DNA from: Escherichia virus KFS-EC
Length of the DNA stretch: 64,000 nucleotides
Sequence record: MH560358
Direction: 5' to 3' (one strand)
The number at the start of each line of letters is the position of its first letter. Position 1 is the stretch's first letter. The position numbers were made by a program, and so were the translations under genes. Of this stretch, positions 2,812 to 36,169 are shown piece after piece. The notes under the pieces are model-generated. The model had not been told where the DNA came from. It worked only from the letters and a program-made list of their open reading frames with translations, and searched no databases.

Positions 2812-4377
2812 ATGTTTAGTAGATTAAAAATGCTTGCGCGTTGGGCTGATTTTGACAACGACAAATACGAAGAACAAATTAAAGATAAAGCAGAGTCTAT
2901 CGCCGCACCTAAAAACAATGATGGTGCTACGGAAGTAGAAATTAATGATAATTTACCTGCTAGCGCGTGGAACTCTCTTACCCAGCAATTTTACAGCACC
3001 GACCAGAAAATCAGCACAACTAAGCAATTAGTTAACACATATCGCGGTTTGATGAATAACCATGAAGTCGAAAACGCTGTACAAAATATCGTTAACGATG
3101 CGATTGTATTTGAAGAAGGTCATGAAGTTGTTTCATTAAATCTTGAGGCGACTGGCTTTAGTGAATCTGTAAAAGAGCGCATTCATGAAGAATTTAAAGA
3201 TCTTTTAAACACTATCCAGTTTGATAGGCGCGGTCAGGATATGTTCCGTCGCTGGTATGTCGATTCGCGTATTTTCTTCCATAAAATCATCGGCAAAAAT
3301 CCAAAAGATGGTATCGTAGAATTACGCCAGCTTGACCCACGTAATCTTGAATACGTTCGAGAGATCATTACAGAAGACACACCGGAAGGTAAAATTTATA
3401 AAGCAACGAAAGAATATTTCATTTACACTGTAGGCAATAGCTCTTATTGCGCAGGTGGTCAAGTATTCTCTCCTAATAGTCGCGTTAAAATCCCGCGTAG
3501 TGCTATTACATACGCTCACAGCGGCTTGATGGATTGTGATGATAAATATATCATTGGTTATTTGCATCGGGCTGTTAAGCCAGCAAACCAGCTTAAATTG
3601 TTGGAAGACGCAATGGTCGTTTATCGTATCACGCGTGCACCGGAACGCCGAGTGTTCTTTATTGATACCGGAAACATGAACAACCGCAAGGCTGCACAGC
3701 ACATGAACTCAGTGGCACAGTCTTTTAAAAACCGCGTTGTTTATGATGCATCGACTGGTAAACTTAAAAACCAGCAAGCAAATCTATCAATGACAGAGGA
3801 CTACTGGTTACAGCGTCGAGATGGTAAAGCAATAACCGACGTTACTACTTTACCCGGTGCATCCGGTATGAGTGATATCGATGATATTCGCTACTTTAAC
3901 CGTAAATTGTATGAAGCGTTGCGTGTACCATTGTCACGCAGTAATCTCTCCGATGCTAATATGGTGATCGGTGGTGACGGTTCAGAAATTACTCGCGATG
4001 AGTTGGAATTTTCGAAATTCATTAGAACTCTGCAATCACAGTTTTCGGAAGTATTGCGCGATCCTCTGAAATATAATCTGATTCTCAAAAATGTAATTAC
4101 GGAAGACGATTGGGATCGTGAAATAAATAATATCAAGGTGGTTTTCCATCGGGACTCTTATTATACAGAAGTTAAAGACGCGGAAATTTTAGAACGTCGA
4201 ATCGGTCTAATCGAACGTATTACACCTTACATTGGTAAATATTTCTCTAACCAGACAGTGATGCGTGACATTCTGAAATATACCGATGACCAGATGGACA
4301 CCGAGAAGAAACAGATCGAAGAAGAAGCGAACGATCCGCGCTTTAAACAAACTCCCGATGAAATAGAGGATTTTTAA
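2812..4377 (+). CDS. 20: Portal vertex protein gp20
   Basis: 521 aa ORF in the gp20 position between gp19 and gp67, size as T4 gp20. Confidence 0.9.
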   Translation: MFSRLKMLARWADFDNDKYEEQIKDKAESIAAPKNNDGATEVEINDNLPASAWNSLTQQFYSTDQKISTTKQLVNTYRGLMNNHEVENAVQNIVNDAIVFEEGHEVVSLNLEATGFSESVKERIHEEFKDLLNTIQFDRRGQDMFRRWYVDSRIFFHKIIGKNPKDGIVELRQLDPRNLEYVREIITEDTPEGKIYKATKEYFIYTVGNSSYCAGGQVFSPNSRVKIPRSAITYAHSGLMDCDDKYIIGYLHRAVKPANQLKLLEDAMVVYRITRAPERRVFFIDTGNMNNRKAAQHMNSVAQSFKNRVVYDASTGKLKNQQANLSMTEDYWLQRRDGKAITDVTTLPGASGMSDIDDIRYFNRKLYEALRVPLSRSNLSDANMVIGGDGSEITRDELEFSKFIRTLQSQFSEVLRDPLKYNLILKNVITEDDWDREINNIKVVFHRDSYYTEVKDAEILERRIGLIERITPYIGKYFSNQTVMRDILKYTDDQMDTEKKQIEEEANDPRFKQTPDEIEDF

Positions 4378-4617
4378 ATGAAACAATTTATCGAAGCAAT
4401 TAAAACTCGCGATCTAACGCTGATCGAAAAAGAATTTGATAAGATCATGGAGGCTAAAAAAGCCCAGATCATCGAATCACAGCGTGTCGAAATCGCATCC
4501 AGTATCATGATCGAAGGTGAAGAAGAAAAAGACCGCGATGATGAAGATATGGATTATGAGGACGACGAAGACGAAGATCGCAAAGACGATAAAAAAGATA
4601 AAGAAGACGACGAATAA
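4378..4617 (+). CDS. 67: Prohead core protein gp67
   Basis: 79 aa, strongly acidic C-terminus, starts directly at the gp20 stop, T4 position of gene 67. Confidence 0.75.
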   Translation: MKQFIEAIKTRDLTLIEKEFDKIMEAKKAQIIESQRVEIASSIMIEGEEEKDRDDEDMDYEDDEDEDRKDDKKDKEDDE

Positions 4618-4629
4618 TAGGAAGCCAAC

Positions 4630-5037
4630 ATGATTAAAGATTTTACTCCTAAAGCTGACTTAGAAACTTTTCTGCCGGAAGCACAGGAAAAATTGGACAT
4701 GTTGGCTATGTTTGAGTCAGAAGAACTATTGAAAATCGTTGAAGGTATCTCCGAGGATGAGCCGGAACTGGCGGTAGCAATGCTGTCTATCATCGACGGA
4801 ATTACTGTAAATGAAGCAATGGTTAAACATGTAAACGCACGCGGGGAAGTTGCACGTAAGAAAGATCGCAAAACCCGTGAGCGTAATGCTTACATGACTA
4901 CTGGCCTAAGCAAAGCTAAACGCCGTCAAATTGCCCGTCGTGCTGCAAAAACCAAACGTGCAAATCCATCTATCGAACGTCATGCGGAACGTAAGCGCAA
5001 AAAAGCAATGCGTAAACGTAAGGCGTTAGGATTATAA
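4630..5037 (+). CDS. 68: Prohead core protein gp68
   Basis: 135 aa with highly basic C-terminus, T4 position of gene 68. Confidence 0.75.
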   Translation: MIKDFTPKADLETFLPEAQEKLDMLAMFESEELLKIVEGISEDEPELAVAMLSIIDGITVNEAMVKHVNARGEVARKKDRKTRERNAYMTTGLSKAKRRQIARRAAKTKRANPSIERHAERKRKKAMRKRKALGL

Positions 5038-5048
5038 CAGGAAACAAC

Positions 5049-5744
5049 ATGGAAAAGAACGAATTACTGATCGAACAATGGGGCGTTCCTTGTGCTCGCG
5101 GTAGTTCGTCATTGCTTGAATCATTTGATGATAAGGCTACAGGAAATCTCTATATTCAAGGGATTTTCCTGCAAGCCGAAACGGTAAACCGCAATAAACG
5201 CTGGTATCCTCGCAGTGTTCTAGAAAATGCGGTTACTAAATACATACATGAACAAGTTGAGACACATCAAGCTCTAGGCGAACTTAATCACCCAGCAAGA
5301 GCAATGCCAGATCCATCTAATGCTTGCATCATAATTGAAAAATTATGGTGGGAAGGTAATAACGTGATGGGTAAAGCCCGTGTTATTGAAGGGGATAAAG
5401 GCGCAGGTGATAAACTTGCTGCACTGATTCGCGCTGGCTGGATTCCTGGCGTTTCCTCCCGTGGGTTGGGTCGGTTGAAAGACTCTGGTCGCGGATACAA
5501 TATTGTACAGGAAGGTTTTGTGTTGACGGTTGGTGTTGATGTTGTATGGGGTCCGAGCGCACCTGATGCGTGGGTAACTCCTGTTGTTGAGTCAACGGAT
5601 AGCGATTCTAGCGCGTCAGACGCACCAGAAAGCGATAAAACCGAAAAAGTGACTAACCCTACAGCCTCACAACAAAACATCGTAGAATTGAATAATAGCG
5701 CGTTTATGGCGCTCGCAGAAGCGTTATCTAAACGCTATAAATAA
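5049..5744 (+). CDS. 21: Prohead core protease gp21
   Basis: 231 aa; position between 68 and 22; conserved stretches such as ELNHP and GVSSRGLGR as I recall for T4 gp21. Confidence 0.85.
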   Translation: MEKNELLIEQWGVPCARGSSSLLESFDDKATGNLYIQGIFLQAETVNRNKRWYPRSVLENAVTKYIHEQVETHQALGELNHPARAMPDPSNACIIIEKLWWEGNNVMGKARVIEGDKGAGDKLAALIRAGWIPGVSSRGLGRLKDSGRGYNIVQEGFVLTVGVDVVWGPSAPDAWVTPVVESTDSDSSASDAPESDKTEKVTNPTASQQNIVELNNSAFMALAEALSKRYK

Positions 5745-28658: not shown

Positions 28659-28991
28659 TTATAGTCTCCTGAATGGATCATCACGTAAATCAATATCTTT
28701 TAAGAACTCATCCCATGAATGGCGGATATTGTTCTTAATTCTCCAGATAAGCGCAGGGATTGAACGCTCTCCCATCTGGAAGTATGGATCATATGATCCG
28801 TATGACCAATATGCTACTACAATTCCACAATCAGCGCAATAGTATTCTATTTCACTTGCTGGCGACCAAAGTCCATCAATATGATCGGTGATCTTGCTTT
28901 CGATGTTATGGCTATGACAATCAGGGCAACGGATGCAATGACCTTGTTTATCGTAATTTGACGTTAGAGAATACTTAAACAATCTCATCAT
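28659..28991 (-). CDS. Zinc-ribbon protein (110 aa)
   Basis: CIRCPDCHSH ... YYCADCG, two CxxC pairs; ATGA overlap with the upstream methyltransferase-like gene. Confidence 0.5.
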   Translation of the reverse strand: MMRLFKYSLTSNYDKQGHCIRCPDCHSHNIESKITDHIDGLWSPASEIEYYCADCGIVVAYWSYGSYDPYFQMGERSIPALIWRIKNNIRHSWDEFLKDIDLRDDPFRRL

Positions 28992-29704
28992 GGATCCTTA
29001 TTTGCTTCAAATACTGCCTTTGCGAATCCTCGCGGGGTAAGTGACCTGATAGTCTTTGTTTTCGTTCCTTTCCCGCCTAGCTTAGAATGCTGTTTACTGT
29101 ACCCTTTATTAATCTGCACCGGTTTCTTTTCTGGCATTATAAAGCCTTGTCCGGTCCATAAGCAAGTCTTTTTTGGGTACATATCACGGGCGGCAATATA
29201 CTCAGGAAACGTAGGATGCTTATCATCTTCCGGCAAATAACCGCCATATTCCCACGGATGGAACATGTAATCAGGCTTACGCCACATGCTAGAGATAACG
29301 CTTACAGGATTCTCTATCATGTAGGGAACTCCTAGCCATTCACCCAAATAAGCGGTTATTTTAGCTGCCCGTACATCATGAACTTGAATCAATGGTCCTT
29401 GTTCTAGTTTCTTTCGTTCAAAGTGCGCAGCGCCACTAACAGCTAAATTGGTGCACGGTGGGAATGCAAAGATAATATCCGGTTTCCCCCATTCAAGGTC
29501 CATTGCTCTTTCCAGCCAGTTCAAATCAACCCAGGTGTTTACATAGGTAATGTTTTGATGTTCAAATCGGGTATTATATTTTTTGTATGTACCGTGGTCG
29601 CCATCGTCAGCATTAAAGCAGATCACCTTATGACCCGCTTTAGCCCATTCTAACCCCATTATCCCCGATCCGTCAAAGTTGCAGAATATTAATTTTTGTT
29701 TCAT
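28988..29704 (-). CDS. Cytosine-C5 methyltransferase-fold protein, minimal (238 aa)
   Basis: Motif I FCNFDGSGIMG, motif IV DIIFAFPPCTNLAVSG (PC catalytic dipeptide), motif VI YMIENPVSV (ENV-like), C-terminal TPRGFAKAV (motif IX/X-like); no room for a conventional target-recognition domain. Confidence 0.6.
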   Translation of the reverse strand: MKQKLIFCNFDGSGIMGLEWAKAGHKVICFNADDGDHGTYKKYNTRFEHQNITYVNTWVDLNWLERAMDLEWGKPDIIFAFPPCTNLAVSGAAHFERKKLEQGPLIQVHDVRAAKITAYLGEWLGVPYMIENPVSVISSMWRKPDYMFHPWEYGGYLPEDDKHPTFPEYIAARDMYPKKTCLWTGQGFIMPEKKPVQINKGYSKQHSKLGGKGTKTKTIRSLTPRGFAKAVFEANKDP

Positions 29705-30194: not shown

Positions 30195-30234
30195 TGTTTG
30201 ATTCTCCTAAGTGGTATCTCGTCTTGATGGTTGT

Positions 30235-30264
30235 ATTGTAGGGGGAGTTATCCTCCCCTGTCAA
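30235..30264 (-). promoter_or_regulatory. PeSL-type early promoter (TTGACA, GGGGAGGataaCTCCCCC, TACAAT)
   Basis: -35/-10 hexamers bracketing an 18-nt GC palindrome; leader almost identical to that at 31139-31173. Confidence 0.55.
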
Positions 30265-30278
30265 CACTTTTTATAAAA

Positions 30279-30446
30279 TTATTTGTTAATTTCTGGTGCG
30301 TTGCTAGGATAGTAACCTTCTTTAACTCCGAGATATTTCGCAACCATCCCTACAATCTTCTGTGCTACTACAATGTCAAATTTCAGATAATCTTCGCCGT
30401 GGGTTTCAATGATATATGCTTCACATGCTGCTTTAGTCTCGAACAT
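30279..30446 (-). CDS. Small protein (55 aa), copy 1 of duplicated gene
   Basis: ATG ORF MFETKAACEAYIIETHGEDYLKFDIVVAQKIVGMVAKYLGVKEGYYPSNAPEINK, about 90 percent identical to the 33560..33727 product; under 60 aa so absent from the track. Confidence 0.5.
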   Translation of the reverse strand: MFETKAACEAYIIETHGEDYLKFDIVVAQKIVGMVAKYLGVKEGYYPSNAPEINK

Positions 30447-30479
30447 TTTGATTCTCCTATTTCGTTTCGTTATGTGTGT

Positions 30480-31235: not shown

Positions 31236-31262
31236 AATAAAAAGCCGACGCTAAGGTCGGCT
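31236..31262 (-). terminator. Rho-independent terminator downstream of the 31270..31578 gene
   Basis: AGCCGAC-gctaag-GTCGGCT hairpin with U-tract on the minus strand. Confidence 0.6.
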
Positions 31263-31269
31263 AATAAAA

Positions 31270-31578
31270 TCATTTAGACAAATAATCATTCTGTGCAATC
31301 CGGTCGGCGTATGCTGGTGTTATGTCAATCGCCAACACTTTAACGCGTGCTTTCTTGCGACCTGGGTTTTCTCGTAACCAGTGCTCATGACCGTGAACAT
31401 TTTTATACTGAGATGCTTCTTCGAAGGTACGGATCGGACCTGGGTAATCAGCGTAAAGGATCTCTAGGTCATCGGTGATGTAAAAATATACATCATAATT
31501 ACTGTTCTCTAGTTTAAGCAGAGAGTTGCGAAATTGTGGTAAATTCTCGCGGGTAAATTCAACTACAAGATTTTTCAT
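31270..31578 (-). CDS. HxHW-VLAVDV family small protein (102 aa), paralogue 1
   Basis: Signature YFYITDD ... HGHEHWL ... VLAIDI shared with five neighbouring ORFs. Confidence 0.55.
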   Translation of the reverse strand: MKNLVVEFTRENLPQFRNSLLKLENSNYDVYFYITDDLEILYADYPGPIRTFEEASQYKNVHGHEHWLRENPGRKKARVKVLAIDITPAYADRIAQNDYLSK

Positions 31579-31628
31579 AGTGATATCCTCATTCAGATAG
31601 ATTAAAAGGGGGCTTAACGCCCCGTATA

Positions 31629-31916
31629 TTAAAACAGTCCTTCCTGTACACCGTAGTAGAGTTCGTCGCTGATAATTTCATTAATGCGACGGTGTGCATA
31701 TTCCTGATTTGCGAAGTTGTCAGCAAGTTCTACTTTAGTTTCGCCGTCATGAGTCCATTTAGTGATAACTTTACCATCTGCAAATTTGAAGTTGAACTCT
31801 TTAGCTACTGCATCGCGTACCAGACGTGCGAACTTGTTGTTACGGATTGCATTATCGGTTTCGTGTGCAGCGTGAGCGAATTTGTTAACTTTCAGAGTGA
31901 TAGTAATGTATGCCAT
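31629..31916 (-). CDS. Hypothetical protein (95 aa), related to the 34945..35256 product
   Basis: Shares ...VR.A.AKEFN.K... segment with the 34945..35256 ORF. Confidence 0.5.
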   Translation of the reverse strand: MAYITITLKVNKFAHAAHETDNAIRNNKFARLVRDAVAKEFNFKFADGKVITKWTHDGETKVELADNFANQEYAHRRINEIISDELYYGVQEGLF

Positions 31917-31962
31917 AATTTGATTCTCCTAGTTAGAAAGTGTATCTCGTTTCGATGGGGAT

Positions 31963-31991
31963 ATTATGCTATATCCCCGATCCGGTGTCAA
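31963..31991 (-). promoter_or_regulatory. PeSL-type early promoter with palindrome overlapping the -10
   Basis: TTGACA, 17-nt spacer, CATAAT; GGGGATAT...ATATCCCC inverted repeat spans the -10 region. Confidence 0.5.
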
Positions 31992-31997
31992 CACTTT

Positions 31998-32276
31998 TTA
32001 TAAAATAATTTTTTGATATTTTTCTATGATGTTTGTGTAGGTCACGTCAACCGCTAGCACCGTTGCTTCGAATCCACCGTTTAACCAATGGCTATGATCA
32101 TGATCGTGAAAGAAACCTAGACCAGTACGAAGACCTTCTTTATATTCGGCGCGTACATTTAGATCATCATCGATAAACAGATAAAACCATGAATTTTTAC
32201 TAGGATTGATGATACAACCTTTCAGATTAGGGAGAATATCACGACTAAGAATAAACTTATCACCTACTTTGAACAT
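31998..32276 (-). CDS. HxHW-VLAVDV family small protein (92 aa), paralogue 2
   Basis: Start moved to ATG (MFKVGDKF) with GAGGA ribosome binding site; motif FHDHDHSHWL ... VLAVDV. Confidence 0.55.
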   Translation of the reverse strand: MFKVGDKFILSRDILPNLKGCIINPSKNSWFYLFIDDDLNVRAEYKEGLRTGLGFFHDHDHSHWLNGGFEATVLAVDVTYTNIIEKYQKIIL

Positions 32277-32280
32277 AATA

Positions 32281-32601
32281 TTAGTCCTCACTTATAAGGT
32301 CAAACCAATTGTTTTTCGCATAATGCTTAATGCGTGCTTGATCTGCTTCCGCTGGTGATAGATTCCATGCAACCACTACAACTTCTGACGCATCGTCATC
32401 CGTTTCTGATACCCAATGATTGTGATTCATACAGTTATTTGCTATCGAGTGAGCAAATGATTTCATCACTGGAGACGTATAATCATAGTAACGGATTTTC
32501 AGATTTTCATCAACATACAAGTAGATCGTATAAGGTTTATATTCAGTAACCAGTAACAGACAGTTACGCAATTCTGGGAAAATCTTTTTAGTTAATTTCA
32601 T
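32281..32601 (-). CDS. HxHW family small protein (106 aa), paralogue 3
   Basis: Start moved to ATG (MKLTKKIF) one nt after the upstream stop; motif NHNHWV ... VVVVAWN. Confidence 0.5.
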   Translation of the reverse strand: MKLTKKIFPELRNCLLLVTEYKPYTIYLYVDENLKIRYYDYTSPVMKSFAHSIANNCMNHNHWVSETDDDASEVVVVAWNLSPAEADQARIKHYAKNNWFDLISED

Positions 32602-32602
32602 T

Positions 32603-32821
32603 TTATAATCCTCGGTCTCGGCTATAGTACACGGTACGCCATACAATTTCATGTTTCGTGTCGCTCCAGCACACGATCTCATTTACTCTTAAATCTTTGT
32701 TATCAACAAAAGATGAACATTGTGACGCTTCTTTCATCATTTTATCTGCTGTTTTCTCATCAAATACAGCACAGATTTCTTTATACACTCGATAATCTTT
32801 GAATTGACTCTGAATACCCAT
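32603..32821 (-). CDS. Hypothetical protein (about 72 aa), member of a two-gene paralogue pair
   Basis: SQFKDYRVYKEI...KMMKEASQCSSF parallels SKFKEYKAYQQI...KMMEDASKCPSF in the next ORF; start uncertain (41-nt overlap with upstream gene). Confidence 0.45.
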   Translation of the reverse strand: MGIQSQFKDYRVYKEICAVFDEKTADKMMKEASQCSSFVDNKDLRVNEIVCWSDTKHEIVWRTVYYSRDRGL

Positions 32822-33044
32822 AATTAACACCATTCCAACCAATTGTTTTTGAGAAAACGTTTATCCACTGTTGAGTGTAGCATGTTTCTTTCCATGATAC
32901 AATACGAGTGGAATAATGGTTTTTGTTTCCAGAAAAGGACGGGCATTTTGATGCATCTTCCATCATCTTTTCGGCGAACTCTGGTGCGTATACTCGCAGG
33001 ATCTGTTGATATGCTTTGTATTCTTTAAATTTGCTCATAATCAT
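32781..33044 (-). CDS. Hypothetical protein (87 aa), member of a two-gene paralogue pair
   Basis: ATG ORF; paralogue of 32603..32821. Confidence 0.45.
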   Translation of the reverse strand: MIMSKFKEYKAYQQILRVYAPEFAEKMMEDASKCPSFSGNKNHYSTRIVSWKETCYTQQWINVFSKTIGWNGVNYGYSESIQRLSSV

Positions 33045-33303
33045 TCACTACCTTATCAGCTTCTTTTGTTGTTTTTACATCAACTGCGATAACTCGTAAA
33101 GGTTCGTCATGGTTCCACCAGTGGTCATGAATATCAGCTTGTGATTTATCACCAAAGGAATCACGAATATCATTTTTACATTTATAGCTAATGTGACCTT
33201 CATAGTCAACATAAAGGTAATTATCGAAAATCGGCGTTTTTAAGATCATACCGAAAAATCTTTCTTTGTGTGTCTTATCCAGCGTTACAGTAATTCGCAT
33301 CAT
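33025..33303 (-). CDS. HxHW-VLAVDV family small protein (92 aa), paralogue 4
   Basis: Motif YLYVDYEG ... IHDHWW ... VIAVDV. Confidence 0.55.
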   Translation of the reverse strand: MMRITVTLDKTHKERFFGMILKTPIFDNYLYVDYEGHISYKCKNDIRDSFGDKSQADIHDHWWNHDEPLRVIAVDVKTTKEADKVVNDYEQI

Positions 33304-33315
33304 AATATATTCCTC

Positions 33316-33495
33316 TTAGAAAGGGATGGTCATTTCTTGAGCTTGTACATTCTCGTTAGGATTAAACTTCATCCAACCGATATTGTCTACCAGCATATGT
33401 ACATTTTTATCATATCCTACGTGAGTAGTCAACACTAAATGTGCTTTACCTTCAACGATGATTTCCATGTACTTCTGAACTTCGATAGCTTTCAT
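33316..33495 (-). CDS. Small protein (59 aa)
   Basis: ATG ORF MKAIEVQKYMEIIVEGK... with conserved leader and ribosome binding site; under 60 aa. Confidence 0.4.
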   Translation of the reverse strand: MKAIEVQKYMEIIVEGKAHLVLTTHVGYDKNVHMLVDNIGWMKFNPNENVQAQEMTIPF

Positions 33496-33559
33496 TTTGA
33501 TTCTCCGTTTGTTGTCTTGATGGGAGTATCTTACTACTCCCTTTAATCATTGTCAACTA

Positions 33560-33727
33560 TTATTTGTTAATTTCCGGTGCGTTGCTCGGATAGTAACCTT
33601 CTTTAACACCTAGATATTTTGCAACCATTCCGGTGATCTTCTGTGCTACTACGATATCGAATTTCAGGTAGTCTTCACCGTGGTTTGCTACAATGTATGC
33701 TTCGCATTCTGCTTTAGTCTGGAACAT
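33560..33727 (-). CDS. Small protein (55 aa), copy 2 of duplicated gene
   Basis: Start moved to ATG (MFQTKAECEAY); near-identical to the 30279..30446 product; preceded by PeSL promoter. Confidence 0.5.
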   Translation of the reverse strand: MFQTKAECEAYIVANHGEDYLKFDIVVAQKITGMVAKYLGVKEGYYPSNAPEINK

Positions 33728-33761
33728 TTTTGATTCTCCTATATCTCGTTGGTATGTGTGC

Positions 33762-33790
33762 ATTATAGGGGATCGGTGATCCCCTGTCAA
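33762..33790 (-). promoter_or_regulatory. PeSL-type early promoter (TTGACA, GGGGATCaccGATCCCC, TATAAT)
   Basis: Same architecture and almost the same palindrome as the promoter at 28103-28131. Confidence 0.6.
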
Positions 33791-33795
33791 CAACT

Positions 33796-34089
33796 TTATA
33801 ATGCTTTATATGCGTATTTCATAAATTTGTCTGCCACTTCATTGGCATGTTCAGATTCTACGCCTGATTCGAGAACAATAGCTAGGTCGGTTTCGTCATT
33901 CCCGCCGTACCAATGATTTGATGTTCGATTTTTTTCAATTGGAAATTGGTCACTTTTATCTGTGCGACAAAATACATCTAAATGCTCGTCGATGTAAAAG
34001 ATCCAATCTTCATAAAGAATAACGGTATTAGCAAGATTTTTATTGCCTTCAACGAAAGGTTCGGCTACAAACAAATTAGTATGTTCCAT
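33796..34089 (-). CDS. HxHW-related small protein (97 aa), paralogue 5
   Basis: Start moved to ATG (MEHTNLF) with GAGGAAA ribosome binding site; motif IFYIDEH ... SNHWY ... LAIVLE. Confidence 0.45.
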   Translation of the reverse strand: MEHTNLFVAEPFVEGNKNLANTVILYEDWIFYIDEHLDVFCRTDKSDQFPIEKNRTSNHWYGGNDETDLAIVLESGVESEHANEVADKFMKYAYKAL

Positions 34090-34105
34090 AGTATTTTCCT
34101 CAAAA

Positions 34106-34297
34106 TTATACAGCTTCGTAAACTTCCCAATGTCCAACACCAGCACGCTTAACGAAAAGGTTTTCTTTGATGTTATTCATAAACGTCTGGATGGATTTAA
34201 TGCGGTTTGAAGGTTTCCATTCTTCGTTGGCATTGCGTCGATACATCATAACATTACCAGTTCGCTTATATTCAGCAACCATTTTAAGACCACACAT
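34106..34297 (-). CDS. Hypothetical protein (63 aa)
   Basis: ATG with GAGGA ribosome binding site. Confidence 0.45.
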   Translation of the reverse strand: MCGLKMVAEYKRTGNVMMYRRNANEEWKPSNRIKSIQTFMNNIKENLFVKRAGVGHWEVYEAV

Positions 34298-34354
34298 AAT
34301 ATTATCCTCAATTTGTGGGAGAGTATTACCCCTCCCAATGATTGTTATGTTATA

Positions 34355-34675
34355 TCACACAAAATGGCGTGTCAATGCTTCTTTTGCGGTTCCGCTAAGA
34401 CTTTCGATCTCGCCTGGCATAACATCAACCGCCAGAACTTCTACAACATCCTCGGACCCTAACCAGTGAGTATGACCTTTGTAGAACTTGATAACCAGAC
34501 TACCTTCCTCGTCCCATTTAACGCTATCGCTAGCCCACCACACATCACCGTCGATAAAGTTGATGTAAAGCACACTACGCCACATTGAATTAATTACTTT
34601 CAATACTGCGCCTTTCATCTCTTCCACGGTATGGTCTTCCATTTTGAAGACCTCACCTACCTGAACTTTTGCCAT
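34355..34675 (-). CDS. HxHW-VLAVDV family small protein (106 aa), paralogue 6
   Basis: Motif YINFIDGD ... GHTHWL ... VLAVDV. Confidence 0.55.
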   Translation of the reverse strand: MAKVQVGEVFKMEDHTVEEMKGAVLKVINSMWRSVLYINFIDGDVWWASDSVKWDEEGSLVIKFYKGHTHWLGSEDVVEVLAVDVMPGEIESLSGTAKEALTRHFV

Positions 34676-34692: not shown

Positions 34693-34872
34693 TTACATAA
34701 CACTCACGCCAGCCGTTGAAAGTTGATGTTTCAACTGAGCATTTTCTGCTACCGTCAAATCAATGATTTCTTGTGACGCTGCAATCATATAGCCATTGGT
34801 GATATTGTTTTGCATCAGTTCAATGGTTTCTTCGTTGTAGCGGATTTTAGCGATGATTTCGTTGAAGTTCAT
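34693..34872 (-). CDS. Small protein (59 aa)
   Basis: ATG ORF MNFNEIIAKIRYNEETIELMQ... downstream of PeSL promoter; under 60 aa. Confidence 0.4.
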   Translation of the reverse strand: MNFNEIIAKIRYNEETIELMQNNITNGYMIAASQEIIDLTVAENAQLKHQLSTAGVSVM

Positions 34873-34906: not shown

Positions 34907-34936
34907 AGTATAGGGGAGTTTAACCTCCCCTGTCAA
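34907..34936 (-). promoter_or_regulatory. PeSL-type early promoter (TTGACA, GGGGAGGttaaaCTCCCC, TATACT)
   Basis: Palindromic 18-nt spacer between -35 and -10. Confidence 0.55.
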
Positions 34937-34944
34937 CAACTTTT

Positions 34945-35256
34945 TTAAAGTTTTTCCATGATAACGGTCATAATTACATCTTCTGCGCGAGCGGTCAGAT
35001 TATCAGCGTCAGCATGTGGGCGGTTGGTTGTTACAGAGATAACACCGTTGCGCACTGGTTTGATATTGATATCAAGATGATCCGCGAAACGTTCGCCAGT
35101 TACAGAATGAATTTTGGTGTTAAATTCTTTTGCCAGTGCCTTGCGAACTTCACGAATCAGGATAGCGTTTTTCAGTTGGTTCTCCGCGCTCATGGTCTTC
35201 TGGGTGTTCATGGTTCCGTCGAAGTCAATCATTGGCAGCGTTACGATGTATTTCAT
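34945..35256 (-). CDS. Hypothetical protein (103 aa)
   Basis: ATG ORF downstream of PeSL promoter; related to the 31629..31916 product. Confidence 0.5.
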   Translation of the reverse strand: MKYIVTLPMIDFDGTMNTQKTMSAENQLKNAILIREVRKALAKEFNTKIHSVTGERFADHLDINIKPVRNGVISVTTNRPHADADNLTARAEDVIMTVIMEKL

Positions 35257-35301: not shown

Positions 35302-35330
35302 AGTATAGGGGATACGTGATCCCCTGTCAA
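35302..35330 (-). promoter_or_regulatory. PeSL-type early promoter (TTGACA, GGGGATCacgtaTCCCC, TATACT)
   Basis: Palindromic 17-nt spacer. Confidence 0.55.
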
Positions 35331-35343
35331 CAACTTTTTTGAA

Positions 35344-35688
35344 TTATTTTTTCATGAGCTTAATGGCTTCTTCCATAGCCAGCACATTTCGATAGTTAGG
35401 GTATCGTGTTAGATCGTCATACATTCGCTTAAGGGTGGAAACTTCCTCAAACTCTGGGTTTTCTAGATACAGTTGAACAAATTGTTTCTCTACCATCTCG
35501 GCTTTTAGCTTGTCTGCTTGTTCCTGTTCATATGATTTCGTTGGACCCAACACCAACAAAATGATAAAGGTGATCAACGGGCTAATGATCAATGATAGGA
35601 TAACATAACCGATAACGCTACGGTTTAAACGGCTTGCATACATGCCTACCAGGAAAACAAAAAGGATATAGATAAACAGAAAGAACAT
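35344..35688 (-). CDS. Membrane protein (114 aa)
   Basis: Two hydrophobic helices in the N-terminal half followed by a charged tail. Confidence 0.5.
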   Translation of the reverse strand: MFFLFIYILFVFLVGMYASRLNRSVIGYVILSLIISPLITFIILLVLGPTKSYEQEQADKLKAEMVEKQFVQLYLENPEFEEVSTLKRMYDDLTRYPNYRNVLAMEEAIKLMKK

Positions 35689-35695
35689 ATAATGG

Positions 35696-36169
35696 TTACT
35701 CCTTATTTTCGCGCTCGTACTTTTCGAAATAAAATTCTACTGGCTGGTCATGAATTGACAGCAAGCCAAAGCGTTTAGCCGCTCGCAATCCCATATTGCG
35801 CTGAATGTACTTCTGGAAGTTCTCGCGTATACACTTACGCCAGTATTCTAAGCCCATACAGCTTTTATAAAGATTGCATTGCACACACGCCGGATTCATG
35901 TTATCAAGTATATCATGTTCCGGTTTATGCATTCCTACAACCTTATACTTCCACGATCCATCATCATTACGGGCAATTCGTCCATTTTCATCATAGACTA
36001 CCTTTGAGCGTCGCAATACTGGTTTGATGTGGTCTGCGTGCCAGCGATCCCCTAGTTCCTCGCCACAATAGGCACAGCGTCCACCATATTTCATTTTCAG
36101 GATCTGGCGTTGCTCTTTCTTTGACAATTTTTTAGGTTTAGGGGCTTTCGACCCTTCATTATCACACAT
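35696..36169 (-). CDS. HNH endonuclease (157 aa)
   Basis: CAYCGEEL ... HADHIKP ... NMNPACVQCNLYK, classical HNH/His-Me finger with zinc ligands; start overlaps the ligase stop. Confidence 0.7.
   Translation of the reverse strand: MCDNEGSKAPKPKKLSKKEQRQILKMKYGGRCAYCGEELGDRWHADHIKPVLRRSKVVYDENGRIARNDDGSWKYKVVGMHKPEHDILDNMNPACVQCNLYKSCMGLEYWRKCIRENFQKYIQRNMGLRAAKRFGLLSIHDQPVEFYFEKYERENKE

Follow-up and report, generated by a model that had tools for sequence, protein, structure and literature searches.

Six divergent small paralogues restricted to Krischvirus and a few sister lineages occupy the alt–DNA ligase interval of an RB49-like coliphage

The stretch of DNA analysed here (hereafter the window) comprises 64,000 nucleotides (nt) of Escherichia virus KFS-EC (sequence record MH560358), and between positions 31,270 and 34,675 it carries an array of six small open reading frames (ORFs), labelled A to F by rising coordinate, which an earlier sequence-only reading had described as divergent paralogues. 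The coordinates of that reading were confirmed, and all six lie on the minus strand. They are listed below with the length in amino acids (aa), the orthologue in phage RB49, the form taken by a shared H-x-H-W motif, the expectation value (E) obtained when the member was left out of the family profile, and the ratio of non-synonymous to synonymous substitution rates (dN/dS, Nei-Gojobori).

34355..34675, minus strand: member F, 106 aa, orthologue of RB49p208, HTHW, left-out E 7e-8, dN/dS 0.17
33796..34089, minus strand: member E, 97 aa, RB49p206, SNHW, the weakest member, left-out E 4e-3, dN/dS 0.15
33025..33303, minus strand: member D, 92 aa, RB49p203, HDHW, left-out E 4e-6
32281..32601, minus strand: member C, 106 aa, RB49p200, HNHW, left-out E 2e-11, dN/dS 0.26
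31998..32276, minus strand: member B, 92 aa, RB49p199, HDHDHSHW, left-out E 1e-9, dN/dS 0.10
31270..31578, minus strand: member A, 102 aa, RB49p197, HEHW, left-out E 3e-11, dN/dS 0.21

The 4.5-kb region around the array is 97.5–98.3% identical to Escherichia phages RB49, kvi and Sf20, with matches at that level found in 57 Krischvirus records and no others; on this comparison the window belongs to Krischvirus, the RB49-like T4-type coliphages. Every one of the six RB49 orthologues is annotated 'hypothetical protein'.

Pairwise identity among the copies is 20–30%. Homology was assessed by leave-one-out searches, in which a hidden Markov model (HMM) built from the other members was run against the full set of 983 ORFs from the six frames of the window. 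In every run (6/6; E from 3e-11 to 4e-3) the left-out member ranked first among matches outside the training set, and the best unrelated ORF scored E ≥ 0.03. The motifs proposed from sequence inspection are thereby statistically supported, and by this profile evidence the six ORFs are true, strongly diverged paralogues. When the window and, with a broadened profile, the remainder of the RB49 genome were scanned, no seventh member was detected. The members are acidic to neutral (isoelectric point 4.5–6.3), and inspection by eye revealed no signal peptide or membrane segment.

Three segments are shared in the multiple alignment: an aromatic-[LF]-[YF]-[IV]-[DTN] strand, H-x-H-W, and a V-[LIV]-[AE]-x-[DNG]-[VIL] strand. 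Across 25 diverse sequences only H63 and W64 (member B numbering) are invariant, H61 being nearly so. The HxHW motif of the sequence-only reading was therefore retained in its second His and its Trp but not in its first His, which is Ser in the window copy of E (SNHW; other E alleles have HNHW) and is replaced only by Ser or Asp among family sequences. The segments that the reading had written as YxYxDD and VLAVDV are both present in the alignment, but 'YID' and 'VDV' often have another residue in place of their Asp. It had also taken the conserved His cluster to suggest metal binding; in the family alignment, no single chain conserves all the ligands of a three- or four-ligand metal site.

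A catalytic role for H-x-H, perhaps doubled in a dimer, would make these proteins small metal-dependent enzymes, for example hydrolases with a nucleotide signal or a modified base as their substrate. The persistence of the His and Trp residues across sequences only about 25% identical, and the HDHDHSHW stretch of member B, are consistent with such a role. We nevertheless consider it very unlikely, as proteins of 92–106 aa with no further invariant polar residue matched no enzyme family or fold, and as their motif differs from the signatures of the 2H (HxT/S), HIT (HhHhHhh) and metallo-beta-lactamase (HxHxDH) families.

No recurrent model from Pfam, NCBIfam or PADLOC matched any member, and a lone weak match of one member to T4_Y03C (PF25721, E 0.1) looks like noise and was discarded. 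A profile search of PDB sequences gave no match. No homologue was found in 26 kb of T4 (including the alt–30 and 2–14 kb regions) or in 25 kb of phage 133. The proteins themselves are already catalogued, both as GenBank hypotheticals and in five PHROGs (phrog_9345, 17255, 16486, 15965 and 15972; E 1e-48 to 1e-72), all of 'unknown function'; PHROGs thus splits the family, which includes the same RB49 proteins, into five groups, although phrog_9345 is also matched by four of the six members. Searches of the literature by locus tag, accession, PHROG identifier and Krischvirus anti-defence found no mention of the six-fold paralogy, the motif, the fold or the operon position. The statement that the family was not recognised has accordingly held up, with no characterised T4 family, Pfam, NCBIfam or PADLOC model, or solved structure matching it.

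A word-indexed search of 5.8 billion proteins returned 90 matches, and an HMM search run exhaustively over 1.84 billion cluster representatives returned 22 clusters at E ≤ 1e-3, none of them from T4. One of the clusters, P0095 (2878 aa, reading like a Gram-positive surface protein), collected 67 bits over nine repeats of the form '...GDHGKI...KFWV.P...VTL.AP.VTP.KGY' and was judged spurious, a chance match summed over the repeats. Iterating once more with the broadened profile brought in no further distant relatives. Family matches lie either on Krischvirus-like contigs of 150–176 kb or on short contigs, where the genes next to them are 40–70% identical to window genes; by that resemblance the short contigs represent uncultured sister T4-type lineages. 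As far as these searches reach, the family occurs only in Krischvirus and in a few such sister phages.

Copy number was compared across related RB49-like genomes. Exactly six members in the order F-E-D-C-B-A were present in 13 genomes or contigs (eight isolates, ECD7 and four metagenomic Krischvirus contigs), and tblastn against GenBank phage records recovered A in 55 of them, B in 52 and C in 55. The dN/dS values of 0.10–0.26 for five groups (not computable for D owing to a saturated allele) show that these are real coding genes under purifying selection. Sister-lineage contigs carry one-to-one orthologues at 38–50% identity, which argues that the duplications are old and predate the split from the sister lineage.

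Against this constant background, several exceptions were observed. Member E exists as two allele classes with 68% amino acid identity, and D as a 53%-identical allele in phage FL38, in genomes that are otherwise ~ 95% identical; for F, an allele with a 6-aa indel exists. In JSE (NC_012740, positions 2900–5550 of the extracted locus L022), two divergent C-like genes replace C and B, leaving no B, and the A and E genes are frameshifted in the deposited sequence, representing either pseudogenes or sequencing errors. One metagenomic contig (IMGVR_UViG_3300045988_033703, locus L019) has a natural 2-kb deletion, with its junction at window positions 32075/30106, that removes the 3′ end of B, the adjacent 95-aa gene, A and three more small genes. 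A sister phage whose ligase is 72% identical has two members only, both E-like. Some genomes can therefore do without individual members. The idea of an array expanding fast in an arms race, implicit in the earlier description of a diversified multi-copy family, was upheld in part: allele replacement, paralogue replacement and deletion do occur in some genomes, but a number and order fixed at six in 13, purifying selection and old duplications are less in keeping with rapid expansion.

In RB49, the array is flanked by alt and a DNA methyltransferase gene on one side and by genes for an HNH endonuclease and DNA ligase gp30 on the other, on the early-gene strand. In the window, the hyperplastic region is bracketed as follows.

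28988-29704: DNA methyltransferase gene
35696-36169: HNH endonuclease gene

The same flanks, the Alt ADP-ribosyltransferase and DNA ligase gp30, enclose in T4 only the 62-aa alt.1 and no family member in the regions scanned, and in Acinetobacter phage 133 alt and gene 30 are adjacent with nothing between them; the many-gene interval between alt and the ligase gene is for this reason regarded as a hyperplastic region specific to the Krischvirus lineage. Ligase identity falls from ≥ 95% inside Krischvirus to ≤ 46% in the next GenBank genus.

RB49 ORFs 191–211 make up the region where Arbiol et al. 2010 (PMC2839356) described PeSL cassettes, in which a stem-loop is embedded in a strong sigma-70-like early promoter; the cassettes mediate modular shuffling. 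PeSL promoters were shown to be experimentally functional in this same RB49 region, and the paper does not mention a paralogous family (PMC2839356). In the window, strong PeSL-type promoters (11–12 of 12 consensus matches, stem-loop within the spacer) were located on the minus strand at 35330, 34936, 33790, 31991, 31213, 30866, 30508 and 30264, with weaker promoter-like sites at 34375 and 33556. Every PeSL is followed by a uniform leader, ...GGAGAATCAAA-ATG, belonging to another small gene and not to a family member. The sites and hairpins that define the transcription units of the array are as follows.

34907..34936, minus strand: PeSL-type early promoter TTGACA-18-TATACT, heading a 59-aa gene (34693-34872) and then F
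34347..34375, minus strand: promoter-like site TTGACA-17-TAACAT within the 3′ end of F, heading a 63-aa gene (34106-34297) and then E
33528..33556, minus strand: promoter-like site TTGACA-17-TAAGAT, heading a 59-aa gene (33316-33495) and then D
31963..31991, minus strand: PeSL-type early promoter TTGACA-17-CATAAT, heading the 95-aa gene (31629-31916) and then A
31609..31623, minus strand: GC hairpin with T-rich tail in the gap between the 95-aa gene and A, a possible attenuator
31243..31262, minus strand: intrinsic-terminator-like hairpin, 7 pairs then TTTTATT, directly after A

Four units can be drawn from these elements. Unit 1 runs from the promoter at 34936 through the 59-aa gene to F, and unit 2 from 34375 through the 63-aa gene to E. 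Unit 3 starts at 33556 and holds a 59-aa gene, D, an 87-aa gene, a 72-aa gene, C and B, and unit 4 leads from 31991 through the 95-aa gene and the hairpin to A, the last gene in its unit, ending in the terminator at 31262. No strong sigma-70/PeSL promoter lies directly upstream of any of the six members, and none was seen in the 50-nt gap between the 95-aa gene and A. Each member starts 1–50 nt behind the preceding gene, as the second to sixth cistron of its unit, and is preceded by a Shine-Dalgarno sequence (GAGG/AGGA) 6–9 nt upstream of its ATG. All six members are thus, as read from this layout, promoter-distal cistrons behind other small genes. The proposal that most copies have their own promoter proved wrong, because each PeSL leads another small gene; the early character of the gene context, also proposed from the sequence, was borne out, and given the promoter type the six genes are most likely early-expressed. 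A further promoter-like sequence, TTGACC-17-TATTAT at 32275-32303 within the 3′ end of C, is probably fortuitous and cannot give B a normal leader, because its -10 element ends one base before the B start codon.

Compared with the PeSL-flanked ORFan cassettes of RB49 and phi1, the family shares the region and the same early promoter and stem-loop cassettes. It differs in that its members are never the PeSL-led first gene but ride behind other small genes, and in the sampled genomes it is far less variable in presence than the RB49-unique ORFans 192, 195, 196, 196.1 and 211 (PMC2839356). Location in a documented hot spot of PeSL shuffling, and the frameshift or deletion of some copies in single genomes, could be read as signs that the genes are functionless passengers, relics of cassette shuffling in the hyperplastic region. 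The selection data (dN/dS 0.10–0.26) largely refute this, and the retained ribosome-binding sites, the maintenance of six members in nearly every genome, the sister-lineage orthologues and the confident predicted fold described below also argue against it, leaving it barely credible.

Two overlapping genes for paralogues of phrog_8471, 40% identical to each other, lie between D and C within unit 3.

32781-33044, minus strand: phrog_8471 paralogue, 87 aa
32603-32821, minus strand: phrog_8471 paralogue, 72 aa

On a metagenomic contig of a sister lineage (locus L004, positions 318-1100), a single 260-aa ORF of the order 8471-8471-C-like is colinear with these two genes and C, which abut in the window; it may be either a real fusion or a single-contig artefact. 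A second natural tandem fusion, P0092, joins two B-like domains on a sister contig. Such joins, the placement of D, C and B in one transcription unit, the number and order strictly kept in 13 Krischvirus genomes or contigs, and purifying selection on all copies would suit paralogues that work together in one hetero-oligomeric assembly, which might also include the phrog_8471 proteins, instead of acting as six independent effectors. Each fusion, however, is known from a single short contig only, and the members are spread across four transcription units. The sister phage with only two E-like copies, the absence of B from JSE beside its two C-like genes, the contig lacking A, and immediate upstream genes that differ between lineages also speak against a common assembly, which we regard as improbable. 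For the last of these reasons, an obligate module of leader gene plus family member was rejected as well.

The structure of member B was predicted with AlphaFold2 from a 59-sequence alignment. The model is confident (predicted local distance difference test 88.8, predicted template modelling score (pTM) 0.82), with strands at residues 7–9, 22–24, 31–35, 41–45 and 70–75 (TVLAVD), helices at 12–18 and 83–91, and a short helix at 62–66 (HSHWL) preceded by a loop. These elements suggest a compact barrel of five strands, KOW/SH3-like in type. In the model, its small-barrel topology appears to resemble that of the KOW domains of NusG/Spt5, ribosomal protein L2, eL14, mS34 and RimP, from which it differs by added helices after strand 1, at H-x-H-W and at the C-terminus. 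Foldseek comparison of the model with PDB gave a best E of 0.39, with no Tad2 among the hits, and comparison with BFVD returned only Krischvirus paralogues at E below ~ 0.01, these independently predicted structures superposing at template modelling scores of 0.6–0.7. As judged from the model, the resemblance to small barrels is distant and is the sole remaining lead to a known function.

A candidate function suggested by this lead is modulation of transcription or translation, in which the KOW-like barrel would dock on RNA polymerase, Rho, ribosomal protein S10 or the ribosome and, for example, tune termination at PeSL hairpins. The N-termini of B (FKVGDKF...LKGCII) and F (KVQVGEVFKM...MKGAVLKV) resemble a KOW motif by eye, a B-type homologue (P0085) was named 'KOW2-KOW3 domains of Spt5' by a public pipeline, and the product of the neighbouring alt modifies RNA polymerase. 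The motif is visible in these two of the six subfamilies only, though, and the acidic to neutral character of the proteins is atypical for nucleic-acid binders. Since none of the 25 members matched the Pfam KOW models even at E ≤ 10, membership of KOW (PF00467) was rejected, and we give the modulator explanation a low probability.

The size and setting of the family also recall DUF2829 (Tad2/AcrIIA7), which comprises phage-encoded early accessory proteins of ~ 85–105 aa and has a local [IV]-L-A-x-D-[WV] likeness ('VLAxDV' in the family, 'ILAEDW' in Tad2). The invariant G-W-N-G-K-G and W..SQ.D.LA.DW motifs of DUF2829 are absent from the six-copy family alignment, comparing the family by hhalign with an alignment of genuine DUF2829 proteins gave a probability of 0.3% over 11 columns only, and PF11195 matched none of the 25 members at the same relaxed threshold; membership was rejected on these grounds. 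A related function without homology was also weighed, namely that the proteins are sponges, comparable to Tad2, Tad1 and Acb2, whose H-x-H-W motifs form a multi-chain pocket binding an immune signalling nucleotide or a divalent metal, each paralogue taking a different ligand. The length of ~ 90–105 aa, the early phage context, the conserved His pair and Trp with their restricted substitutions, the local Tad2 likeness and the P0092 tandem fusion agree with this. The failed DUF2829 comparisons, the absence of Tad2 from the Foldseek matches and the lack of a full metal site within one chain do not. The P0092 fusion was itself modelled for a dimer interface, and the result was uninformative, because a disordered linker joins the domains (pTM 0.51) and their packing is not confident. 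In sum, sponge activity appears unlikely.

What is firmly established is that the family is real, selectively maintained and lineage-restricted, and consists of six small soluble proteins. As to function, our preferred interpretation, held tentatively and at somewhat less than an even chance, is that these are early accessory proteins binding host components for takeover or counter-defence, with targets specific to each paralogue. The six proteins would act early in infection as non-enzymatic, stoichiometric binders, on a scaffold common to all paralogues but with a target specificity own to each, and the binding would serve host takeover or counter-defence; H-x-H-W would serve all copies as a contact or ligand site, or else belong to the structural core. 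Counted in favour are behaviours expected of accessory genes (allele replacement, the replacement of B in JSE and the natural deletion of A), the early-type PeSL context, the lineage-specific region, and the lack of any match to an enzyme or known family.

Several points weigh on the other side. The idea of binders draws on the general behaviour of small early genes in T4-type hyperplastic regions; the fixed number and order, together with strong purifying selection, are less typical of arms-race genes; and a site of catalysis or ligand binding would account equally well for the invariant His-Trp pair. The idea that the loop preceding H-x-H-W is hypervariable and sets specificity was considered and rejected, as variation among orthologues is not clearly enriched there: a 'specificity loop' is not demonstrated because 31% of sites vary in the loop compared with 18–37% elsewhere. 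A bolder version, in which the family forms a new structural class of counter-defence or takeover 'sponge' or inhibitor unrelated to Tad1, Tad2 and Acb2, with a multi-chain H-x-H-W pocket and six specificities, strikes us as rather unlikely.

Phages of the RB49 type are frequent isolates in work towards coliphage therapy, and roughly half of the genes they carry have no explanation. Conserved families of ORFan paralogues are a familiar kind of finding in T4-type hyperplastic regions and hold little surprise for a specialist, and the six-copy family makes no long-standing open question directly testable. It does offer a compact experimental target, a set of six small relatives whose motif is sharp and whose fold is confidently predicted, all in one region that T4 lacks. 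Should the proteins turn out to inhibit host defence or core host machinery, the anti-defence or takeover repertoire would gain a new protein family, which would also help to explain host-range differences among Krischvirus phages; should the proteins have no measurable effect, they would be one more conserved ORFan family.

Some further features of the region were noted. At least eight strong PeSL cassettes (TTGACA, 17/18-nt spacer, TATAAT) lie on the minus strand between 30235 and 35330, with a spacer stem-loop of the form GGGGATC...GATCCCC, and correspond to the mobile regulatory cassettes that Arbiol et al. 2010 described. A 220-nt direct repeat with 78% identity (30230-30449 and 33511-33730) looks like a duplicated PeSL cassette and holds two near-identical 55-aa genes (30279-30446 and 33560-33727; MF[EQ]TKA.CEAYI...YYPSNAPEINK), both led by their own PeSL. 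A second pair of paralogues, belonging to phrog_7474 (unknown function), is likewise PeSL-led; it consists of the 95-aa gene at 31629-31916, directly upstream of member A, and a 103-aa gene at 34945-35256. The 114-aa gene at 35344-35688 corresponds to RB49 ORF211, described as an RB49-specific homologue of a Vibrio superintegron ORF (PMC2839356); the N-terminal half of its product looks like hydrophobic membrane segments, and the gene is absent from FL38, JK32, Skers and UPWr_E1. At the far edge of the region, the HNH endonuclease gene and the ligase gene overlap by 8 nt.

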